Source: a virus
Strand: one strand, 5' to 3'
Virus record (IMG/VR): IMGVR_UViG_3300025699_000004
DNA: 64,000 bases
In this document: positions 54,244 to 58,714 of the stretch, one piece after another
Numbering within the stretch: the stretch's first letter is position 1
Layout of the letters: every line of letters begins with the position of its first letter
Program-made: the position numbers and the translations under genes
Notes under the pieces: model-generated
Seen by the model: only the letters and a program-made list of their open reading frames with translations
Database searches by the model: none
What the model was told of the DNA's origin: nothing

Positions 54244-54495
54244 TTATTCTACGCCTAGAATTGTTTTTAATTGGCGATAATGTTCTGTTCTAATAAATAC
54301 TTCTCTAACATAGTCGTCAGATTCTGCTTCTACTTTTTCTATCCTGCTAGGAACAAATTGAGCGAAACACTCTTCTCTTTCTCTCATGCCCCATTTAATA
54401 ACTAACGGAGTATTAGGAAAGTATTTAATTAATTGTGGAAGTTGAACGGAGTCTACAAAACCCCAATTCTCGATAATATCTTTTATTAGTTGCAT
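54244..54495 (-). CDS. Hypothetical protein (leaderless-type promoter)
   Basis: TTGACT-17-TAAATT-6-ATG; promoter shares 30 identical bp with that of 54197. Confidence 0.7.
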   Translation of the reverse strand: MQLIKDIIENWGFVDSVQLPQLIKYFPNTPLVIKWGMREREECFAQFVPSRIEKVEAESDDYVREVFIRTEHYRQLKTILGVE

Positions 54496-54550
54496 GATTT
54501 AAATTTAGAATAGATTAATTTAAAAGTCAAATTTATTTTTGTGTTTTTAC

Positions 54551-54625
54551 CTCTTTCTCTCTCCCGAAGGTTGTAGGCGTGTGCTGACGCCTCGTTGTTC
54601 AATGCTTTCGCATCTACAGAAAGAG
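54551..54625 (-). ncRNA. Structured RNA module (multi-branch, GAAA and UUCG tetraloops)
   Basis: CTCTTTCT/AGAAAGAG closing stem, GTAG/CTAC, ATGC-GAAA-GCAT, GCGT/ACGC, CC-TTCG-GG. Confidence 0.65.
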
Positions 54626-54626
54626 C

Positions 54627-54745
54627 AGTCCCATAGGAGACTCGAACTCCTTTCTTTATTCCCTCTACGATGATCAATCGTTTGCAGTCGTAACTAGTAT
54701 TCTGCTCGTGGAAATAATGCTTTACCGATTATAAGCTAATGGGAC
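54627..54745 (-). ncRNA. tRNA-like RNA with ~46-nt structured insertion in the anticodon arm
   Basis: Acceptor GTCCCAT/ATGGGAC, D-arm GCTT/AAGC, T-arm AGGAG-TTCGAGT-CTCCT, anticodon stem TTATT/AATAA enclosing two hairpins; no CCA. Confidence 0.8.
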
Positions 54746-54749
54746 ACAT

Positions 54750-54766
54750 AAAATGTTAAAGAACTA
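54750..54766 (-). promoter_or_regulatory. rrn-type boxA-like element
   Basis: GTTCTTTAACATTTT 4 nt upstream of the tRNA-like RNA; same 13-mer at 58052-58064. Confidence 0.65.
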
Positions 54767-54786
54767 AGAACAATTAATCACATTAT

Positions 54787-55023
54787 TTAATCTACGTCAA
54801 ATAATTTTTTATTTTTTTCTAAATATTCTTCTCTAGCTATTTTGCCAGTAGCTAAAGCTATTTCATAACCTAATCTATTTAATTCAATTTTGATCACTTT
54901 TATCTTTCCTTTGTGATCGGGGGAAGGATTTATTTTCTCCTTTTCTCTGATTAATTTAAATTCGTTATACCTGCTAATGAGATATTTCAATCTCTCCGTT
55001 GGTGTCATTGGTTTAATGTTCAT
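54787..55023 (-). CDS. Hypothetical basic protein
   Basis: 78-aa ORF; its 3' end contains TTGACG for the downstream RNA. Confidence 0.6.
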   Translation of the reverse strand: MNIKPMTPTERLKYLISRYNEFKLIREKEKINPSPDHKGKIKVIKIELNRLGYEIALATGKIAREEYLEKNKKLFDVD

Positions 55024-57644: not shown

Positions 57645-58107
57645 AAAAACCTCCCCTCTCTGATTAACAACTAAGGTAATAAAGCTTAGTCTCAGAGAGA
57701 GAAGGAGAACGATGAGCTACGAACTCAAAATTAAATTGGTGTGGGGGAGGACTACTGTATACCTCCGACTTTTCGGCATGAACATCAGTTCATAGAGTTC
57801 CTACTTTGTACTACAAATTAGACGTGGTATTAGTCTTTCGCTCATCCGATTGGACTCTGCGTCCCCACCACAGGGAATTTGCATACCTTAGCCCGCTCAT
57901 GACAGGCTTGCTCAGTCACCCACAGGAGAAGCATATCTACTTCTCCAAAGTGTCGGGGGGTAGAGTTTATTTGTTCACCTCGGCAAACAAAAGGATATAA
58001 CCAAAACCTTGCTCTACCGCAGGAATTTATCCTGCGTAACTCCCCTTTATGAAAATGTTAAAGATCAAGTCTTATTTGATTTAATTGAGTTCGACTTTCT
58101 CAATGAT
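57645..58107 (-). ncRNA. Large structured non-coding RNA with group I ribozyme-like core topology
   Basis: Own promoter (TTGACT 58142, TATACT 58119), boxA, more than 10 predicted helices, terminator 57645-57706; no convincing ORF. Confidence 0.75.
58052..58067 (-). promoter_or_regulatory. rrn-type boxA-like element
   Basis: GATCTTTAACATTTT ahead of the structured RNA. Confidence 0.65.
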
Positions 58108-58637: not shown

Positions 58638-58714
58638 TGGTGGGTTCTGTGAGGCTCGAACTCACGACCTGCCGATTATGAGTCGGATGCTCTAACCAAC
58701 TGAGCTAAGAACCC
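58638..58714 (-). tRNA. tRNA with CAT anticodon, probably Ile2 (lysidine)
   Basis: GGGTTCT/AGAACCC, CGACTCATAATCG anticodon arm typical of Ile2, A73, encoded CCA. Confidence 0.93.

Follow-up and report, generated by a model that had tools for sequence, protein, structure and literature searches.

Marine phages carry a transcription unit in which an early sigma-70-type promoter and a boxA-like leader are followed by a tRNA body bearing an insert and then by a 77-nt RNA. In the phage DNA analysed here (the window, a stretch of 64,000 nucleotides), the tRNA-shaped part of this unit lies at positions 54627-54745 and, as judged by comparison of its sequence with those of its relatives, is a conserved RNA that does not decode and to which a second folded RNA is joined. 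About 37 marine loci, viral and metagenomic, share this architecture, and the uncatalogued RNA family to which the RNA belongs is represented in more than 40 viral contigs. The reading that we favour, and which we believe probably holds, is that of a stable non-decoding phage RNA built on a tRNA scaffold, matured by tRNA-processing cuts and probably acting through loop-loop pairing.

Fold and conservation of the tRNA-shaped RNA

The positions of the elements are given in Table 1. An initial annotation, made from the letters of the window alone, had described a 7-bp acceptor, a 4-bp D-stem with GG, a 4-nt variable loop and a T-arm, and each of these was recovered at the same minus-strand positions; the anticodon stem, said to enclose about 46 nt, is an 8-bp stem with one G-U pair and encloses exactly 46 nt. 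When the Rfam tRNA model (RF00005, gathering score 29) was applied to the local neighbourhood, the RNA was matched with 40.0 bits (E 5e-7), with all 71 model positions aligned and a 51-nt insertion placed in the anticodon loop; its relatives scored 38-50 bits against the same model. The acceptor, D and T arms and the elbow (U8, D-loop GG, T-loop UUCRA) of the RF00005 cloverleaf are present, and all these helices covary. The 5-bp anticodon stem, 7-nt loop, U33 and anticodon are missing; in their place, the 8-bp stem closes a 46-nt three-way junction. The annotated tRNA mimic that cannot decode is borne out by this replacement of the anticodon loop, and no loop with U33 can be restored.

Table 1. 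Positions of the elements of the RNA unit, and of the genuine tRNAs, in the window
Feature	Position	Strand	Remarks
-35 hexamer TTGACG	54795-54800	-	Position of TTGAC conserved in all relatives
-10 hexamer TTAATT	54772-54777	-	TTTATT or CATAAT in relatives; role assigned from conserved position
Leader, 20 nt, boxA-like motif GUUCUUUAACA	54746-54765	-	Begins at predicted transcription start
tRNA-shaped RNA, 119 nt	54627-54745	-	Rfam RF00005 match, fold, covariation; acceptor, D arm and T arm intact
Acceptor stem, perfect 7 bp, then U8	54739-54745 with 54628-54634	-	
D arm	54719-54736	-	4-bp stem, GG in loop
Extended anticodon arm	54656-54717 (54710-54717 with 54656-54663)	-	8-bp stem including one G-U, closing a three-way junction
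Hairpin 1	54684-54705	-	4-bp covarying stem, 14-nt conserved loop; palindrome ACUAGU at 54693-54698
Hairpin 2	54667-54681	-	4-5-bp covarying stem, 7-nt loop YUGAUCA (anticodon-loop-sized); palindrome UGAUCA at 54671-54676
T arm	54635-54651	-	UUCGA loop
Discriminator U	54627	-	No CCA after discriminator
3' domain, 77 nt	54550-54626	-	Nearly invariant; starts directly after discriminator
3' domain, closing helix	54618-54625 with 54551-54558	-	Covaries
3' domain, three hairpins	54602-54613, 54576-54591, 54563-54570	-	Last one swaps loops; two inner ones invariant
Genuine phage tRNAs Thr-UGU, Arg-UCU, Met-CAU	39520-39595, 41123-41199, 58638-58714		All with 3' CCA

Detection of the RNA depended on the method: a whole-window Rfam scan with fast filters missed it and ARAGORN did not call it, so that, of the ARAGORN and Infernal checks proposed in the initial annotation, only the local comparison with the Rfam tRNA model returned it. 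The thermodynamic fold of the single sequence reproduced the structure with a z of -2.2 against shuffles, which is mildly better only. Because ARAGORN and the fast-filtered scan miss the RNA and the z of its fold is only -2.2, the single sequence is suggestive and not conclusive, and the main weight of the evidence for the predicted RNA is comparative.

For this comparison, 13 distinct units of the two-hairpin class were aligned, and the RNAalifold consensus recovered the acceptor, D, anticodon, hairpin 1, hairpin 2 and T helices. Over 30 pairs and 13 copies, 97.4% of the cells were paired, as against 35-47% when the partners were slid by 1-3 columns; compensatory changes occur at 24 of the 30 pairs, and the observed values of pairing and compensation were attained by none of 500 shuffles. 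Of the six anticodon-stem pairs that were modelled, five covary, and in one relative (L013) all five outer pairs of this stem are replaced with the G-U retained at the same place. Homologue covariation, proposed earlier as a check, is thus extensive. It indicates an RNA under selection, on the side which the initial annotation had preferred to a pseudo-tRNA, and it contradicts a random, non-conserved insertion.

The acceptor and T arm of the window copy are identical over 23 nt to those of genuine, CCA-encoding tRNA-Glu(UUC) of other viral contigs; in a sister type, the tRNA-Glu D arm is kept too and a long variable arm is added. Other family members have quite different tRNA bodies (Glu-like, Ile-like and others), the Ile-like body of one of them presumably resembling E. 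coli tRNA-Ile, and the cloverleaf and elbow nucleotides are kept in all. CCA is encoded by all three genuine tRNAs of the window and is absent from the tRNA-shaped RNA, as had been annotated, U54627 being followed by other letters. Among the relatives, the acceptor stems change freely with compensation, and U, A and G all occur as the discriminator; such variability leaves no conserved set of aminoacylation identity elements, which is a point against charging. Aminoacylation would on these grounds be improbable, and the earlier remark that the RNA is perhaps charged is unlikely to be right, given the lack of a conserved identity set, the variable discriminator and the unencoded CCA.

Promoter, leader and distribution of the family

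The two promoter hexamers are spaced by 17 nt and followed, after 6 nt, by the predicted start at 54765, a geometry which is the same as that of the neighbouring early-gene promoter at 54502-54530. A generic promoter scanner did not flag the promoter of the tRNA-shaped RNA, an omission attributable to the weak match of its -10 hexamer to the consensus. From the predicted start the transcript reads AGUUCUUUAACAUUUU, and the leader closely resembles what we take to be the boxA of E. coli rrn operons (TGCTCTTTAACAA). The leader core AGTTCTTT is conserved in every family member, whatever the tRNA body that follows. A GYUCUUUAACA-type motif after the promoter of an untranslated transcript, as is characteristic of rrn-type boxA, is found at 54754-54764 and in all relatives. 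The promoter and boxA which the initial annotation had assigned to the RNA as its own are conserved in position and sequence in all relatives, and we infer that the leader would serve Nus-factor antitermination of untranslated transcripts. A stem joining leader and trailer for processing was considered and set aside, only 4-5 bp being possible.

The family was collected through two handles. With the upstream 78-aa gene, 3 viral and 36 metagenome loci were obtained; after the conserved promoter and leader, these loci carry the window RNA or a variant of it (12), a different RNA of about 103 nt (about 20) or nothing (4). An 18-nt core of the 3' domain, used as a pattern, gave 24 further viral contigs, and in every one of them a tRNA-shaped RNA with its anticodon loop replaced by an insert precedes the core. 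A search of a genome collection yielded one match, a MAG contig resembling phage DNA (L069). The tally of about 37 loci comprises the 12 metagenome loci found via the 78-aa gene, the 24 viral contigs found via the 3' domain core and this one MAG contig. A relaxed pattern of the 3' domain gave chance matches in coding DNA only, and so no more divergent members were gained. No cultured phage was matched, the unit having no blastn hit among 50,697 phage records; megablast of 20 kb returned a tRNA fragment only, and viral pattern scans found genuine tRNA-Glu genes only (T arm plus acceptor) or nothing (D arm). Rfam 15 contains no family for the tRNA-shaped unit, and searches of the literature gave no description of the family, although it may be among the candidates listed in a 2023 catalogue of structured viral RNAs (PMC10690425).

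Two variants of the locus deserve description. On the MAG contig, which is labelled Rickettsiales bacterium MED606, an extra hairpin of about 50 nt lies between the boxA-like motif and the tRNA-shaped RNA (L069:7771-7830, minus strand), and the body combines the anticodon arm of the window with the long variable arm of the sister type. The alternative RNA of about 103 nt occupies the same site behind the same promoter and boxA-like leader (L003:5298-5400, L006:1773-1875, L037:1397-1501 and about 17 more loci); its acceptor-like stem is long, with a single bulged base, and is accompanied by a T arm and two hairpins but by no 3' domain, and four pairs of this RNA show compensatory changes. Of the 6-nt loops of the two hairpins, CUGCAA is the exact complement of UUGCAG, which fits the theme of loop pairing suggested below by the sequence of the window RNA. 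Neither Rfam nor ARAGORN gave a match for this alternative RNA.

The window derives from an uncultured phage with a G+C content of about 33%, and contains a T4-type terminase N domain, many glycosyltransferases, a manA RNA and three ordinary tRNAs. The genes flanking the unit are all small and on the same strand, and Pfam and PHROGs assign them only to DUF932, GP88 and unknowns. Neighbouring proteins of phages that carry the family are only 30-75% identical, and relatives which lack the RNA keep the flanking early genes. When open reading frames within 4 kb were clustered across 37 loci, no universal neighbour emerged, and the highest-ranking 'clusters' were spurious frames that ran over the RNA; near the unit neither a conserved partner protein nor a defence or toxin partner was identified. 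At 54493-54530 (minus strand), the gene after the RNA unit is preceded by a -35 element, 17 nt, a -10 element and 6 nt, and its ATG at that distance from the -10 element implies a leaderless mRNA.

The insert, the 3' domain and their likely roles

The GCAG/CTGC and ACGAT/ATCGT hairpins which the initial annotation had drawn in the insert are both present, and both stems covary. Six compensated versions of the hairpin 1 stem were found (GCAG/CUGC, GCGG/CCGC, ACAG/CUGU, GUAG/CUAC, GUGG/CCAC and UGUGA/UCACA), and four of the hairpin 2 stem (ACGA/UCGU, CCAA/UUGG, CCGA/UUGG and CGA/UCG). The stems thus vary with compensation while the loops are conserved, as U-ACUAGU-U in hairpin 1 and YUGAUCA in hairpin 2. 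Where the hairpin 1 hexamer differs, it is UCUAGA (L051, L058 and one whole separate insert class) or ACAUGU (L053, L054); that of hairpin 2 is UGAUCA in most copies, UAGCUA in L058 and CGAUCA in L057 and L060. The loop hexamers therefore mostly change in pairs and stay palindromic (ACUAGU, UCUAGA, ACAUGU; UGAUCA, UAGCUA); in the CGAUCA lineage (L057, L060) the outer palindrome pair is lost. Other insert classes of the family are likewise built from ACUAGU, AUCGAU, UCUAGA and the 10-nt UAGCUAGCUA. As DNA words in the whole window, ACTAGT has 3 copies against about 5 (4.9) expected from a Markov model and about 21 from base composition, ACATGT has 3 against 7.8 (Markov) and 21 (base composition), CTAG is under-represented (134 against 194 expected), and the counts of TGATCA and TCTAGA equal expectation.

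A 6-nt palindrome cannot fold on itself within a loop, and the RNA holds no second copy of either; the simplest reading is therefore pairing between two molecules. The insert would accordingly be expected to act, probably, through loop-loop (kissing) pairing, in the simplest case as a homodimer or as chains. Proteins that read the loops would fit as an alternative to dimerisation, most copies keeping one hexamer per loop (ACUAGU; UGAUCA), and the palindromes could in principle be protein sites at the DNA level. Pairing between the loops of hairpins 1 and 2 was examined and rejected, as they are complementary in parallel only and show no joint covariation.

When a covariance model of the 3' domain (R1), built from nine copies, was run on 32 window-type loci, each proved to hold exactly one copy, at 68-113 bits; loci with the alternative RNA, and T4, gave no match. 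In every case the domain begins one base past the discriminator. The initial annotation was right that the RNA at 54627-54745 is real, but had taken its 3' neighbour as something separate, although the two always co-occur. Loops of UUCG, GAAA, GCAA and UUUG interchange in the last hairpin of the domain; neither the two inner hairpins nor the junction strands vary at all, so that the pairing there is only predicted, though the constraint on their sequence is extreme. Such extreme conservation suggests that the 3' domain, rather than the insert, may be the main effector. Threading of the domain by hand onto an HDV-like fold was rejected: its first strand pairs and covaries with its 3' terminal strand, and since the first strand pairs with the last, the fold cannot be HDV-like. 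No ribozyme family of Rfam, HDV-type included, matches the domain.

Further RNA lies beyond the 3' domain in many relatives, where a conserved CACAAUUUUG linker leads into a conserved, helix-rich module of 100-150 nt (L012:1990-2110, L015, L017, L054, L061, L065; L053, L055, L057). There are at least two kinds of such modules, and Rfam gave no match for them. The locus in these relatives looks like an operon of non-coding RNAs, to go by its predicted helices. The window carries the first two modules only, and the next promoter follows its 3' domain immediately.

On the reading of a stable, non-decoding RNA on a tRNA scaffold, the boxA leader would recruit host Nus factors and so allow efficient synthesis of an untranslated transcript, as for rRNA, and the tRNA shape would be a handle for folding, stability and processing. 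RNase P would cut at 54745. A 3' cut after U54627, made either by RNase Z-type processing of the CCA-less precursor or by the 3' domain, would split the two RNAs. The two-hairpin module would form the effector end, each loop presenting a 6-nt self-complementary sequence for kissing pairing. As relatives carry a different RNA or none at the site, the function would be an accessory early one, of the host-takeover or counter-defence kind, and not a core one.

Alternatively, the RNA might be an uncleavable tRNA decoy, the body of which blocks a host tRNA-directed nuclease, toxin or uncharged-tRNA sensor, with the insert filling the gap or adding avidity; lacking an anticodon loop, such an RNA could not be inactivated. 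Phage tRNAs counter anticodon nucleases, and a decoy would agree with an early-expressed accessory locus that is polymorphic by presence, absence and replacement, with the intact elbow and acceptor, and with the anticodon-loop-like 7-nt loop of hairpin 2 (YU-GAU-CA). We nevertheless consider it rather unlikely: the anticodon loop that known anticodon nucleases read is absent from this RNA; from one relative to another the tRNA body is not the same, so that no single tRNA species is mimicked; a decoy would require neither conserved palindromic loops nor a 3' domain; and no defence or toxin partner was identified.

The favoured reading could also be extended to a machine of two parts, in which the module forms dimers or rings through kissing loops while the 3' domain is a self-cleaving ribozyme of a new class that cuts at its own 5' edge and frees the CCA-less RNA. 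We hold this to be quite unlikely; if true, marine phages would have an equivalent of the theta ribozymes built on an unrelated fold.

The unit may instead be imagined as a cis-acting leader of the early operon, a nut/put-like antitermination or processing module acting on its own polymerase or transcript. The downstream genes, however, own promoters with leaderless geometry, and the flanking early genes persist in relatives lacking the RNA. What could be cited in favour of such a leader is the boxA-like motif at the extreme 5' end, the lack of an intrinsic terminator past the 3' domain, with same-strand early genes coming next, and the opening of the 3' domain with a boxA-like GCUCUUU and then a GAAA hairpin; but GCUCUUU belongs to a paired strand whose covariation departs from the boxA consensus, and antitermination needs no tRNA cloverleaf. 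A leader of this kind is in our view improbable.

The place of the insert, the anticodon loop of a tRNA that otherwise looks sound, had suggested an unusual intron, and unexplained inserts are known from phage tRNAs (Devoto et al. 2019, PMC6784885); a functional tRNA would then result when a protein or RNA activity removed the 46 nt, which would be comparable to the 'enigmatic' introns reported from Lak megaphage tRNAs. This idea, which we judge very improbable, did not survive the enumeration of single excisions in canonical register: none gave a 7-nt loop with U33 in the window copy, and the relatives yielded either no solution or mutually inconsistent anticodons, and nothing of the bulge-helix-bulge type. 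Furthermore, a group I core (P3-P9) takes about 200 nt or more, which an insert of 46 nt cannot accommodate, and no Rfam intron matched at E up to 10. The conserved parts are hairpin loops and not splice junctions, the CCA that the phage encodes in its real tRNAs is lacking, and the identity elements of acceptor and discriminator are not conserved.

The tmRNA-like context noted in the initial annotation, GCA AAC GAU UGA at 54685-54674, is present as a string, which we take to resemble the start of the E. coli tag frame, and G3:U70 is absent as had been said. A mini-tmRNA for ribosome rescue with a three-codon tag (Ala-Asn-Asp-stop) has nonetheless almost nothing to recommend it. Pair 3:70 is C-G in 11 copies, including that of the window, and G-C in 2, and never G-U; the supposed resume codon GCA is the 3' strand of hairpin 1, covaries (CUGC to CCGC, CUGU, UCACA) and is GUA or ACA in relatives; the UGA belongs to the conserved palindromic loop; and there are no pseudoknots, nor a match to ARAGORN or the Rfam tmRNA models. 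A decayed pseudo-tRNA with a random insertion, to which one might ascribe the failure of ARAGORN and the whole-window Rfam scan, is scarcely conceivable for an RNA conserved in about 37 loci behind its own conserved promoter, and its pervasive compensatory changes rule out a decayed gene.

Comparison with known systems

As far as sequence and predicted fold allow such an assignment, the tRNA-shaped unit represents a new family of a kind that is known only in loose outline. The 'enigmatic introns' of the Lak megaphages, which are 540-kb gut phages, lie in tRNA genes that were called by tRNAscan in eukaryote mode and have an assignable anticodon (PMC6784885). These genes share with the present RNA a phage tRNA-shaped gene whose anticodon loop is interrupted by a conserved insert without a self-splicing core; here, in contrast, there is no restorable anticodon, the insert is a defined two-hairpin module, a 3' RNA is fused to it, and no sequence relation exists. 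In gut phages, CCA-less tRNAs can carry at their 3' end a theta ribozyme, a minimal ribozyme of the HDV-like type (Kienbeck et al. 2024, PMC10879173), and only 4.5% of the tRNAs associated with theta ribozymes encode CCA (PMC10879173). In both cases a CCA-less, tRNA-type phage RNA is immediately followed by a small, conserved, structured RNA, but the 3' domain described here joins its own 5' and 3' ends and is not a nested double pseudoknot.

Species 1 and 2 of T4 (rnaC, rnaD) are likewise stable phage RNAs of a tRNA gene region, the 139-nt one having a T arm and an acceptor-like stem; species 1, however, reaches only 17.5 bits against tRNA-Sec (E 0.7) and shows no homology. Lacking a cloverleaf with a D arm, palindromic hairpins and the shared 3' domain, it is an analogue and not a relative.

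The tRNA-like handles of MHV68 tRNA-miRNA transcripts and of MALAT1 mascRNA, and the engineered 'tRNA scaffold', recruit RNase P and RNase Z, or stabilise or release an attached RNA. In the engineered scaffold the cargo replaces the anticodon loop, which is exactly the place of the present insert; these handles differ from the phage RNA in being eukaryotic or artificial.

YrlA and the bacterial Y RNAs, which have a tRNA-like module and are bound by Ro60 (Chen et al. 2014, PMC4201824), are also non-coding and occur in some phages as well. YrlA ends at its Ro-binding stem, whereas the RNA described here ends at the acceptor stem and has no Rfam match to them. A Y RNA was considered and rejected, as the topology differs and none of four related viral contigs, one of them estimated to be complete, has a Ro60/TROVE gene.

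Homo-oligomeric RNAs with loop contacts include the HIV-1 dimerisation hairpin, phi29 pRNA and ROOL, GOLLD and OLE (PMC12286853). In these, as in the present family, contact is likely to be made by hairpin loops that are complementary to themselves or to one another, and ROOL and GOLLD are also associated with phages and lie near tRNAs; the phage RNA here is much smaller and built on a tRNA, and its oligomerisation would follow from the sequence of its loops only.

If the favoured reading holds, the 'tRNA scaffold' device of RNA engineers would occur in nature, as a tRNA body bearing an unrelated structured module for an anticodon loop, with different tRNA bodies interchangeable around the same module. 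A well-supported family would in any case join the unexplained tRNA look-alikes of phages, namely the Lak 'introns', the stable RNAs of T4 and the tRNAs linked to theta ribozymes.

A second, near-identical boxA-like motif, GAUCUUUAACAUUUU, lies at 58052-58066 (minus strand), between a sigma-70-type promoter and the manA RNA. With such a motif before both the tRNA-shaped RNA and the manA RNA, both non-coding RNAs of the region start with a boxA, and an rrn-type boxA before two non-coding RNAs of one phage suggests that the phage borrows host rRNA antitermination for stable RNAs. The manA RNA motif itself (57736-57946, minus strand) was matched by Rfam with 81.6 bits, against a cut-off of 55.2, and is syntenic in three of the relatives (L003, L004, L061).
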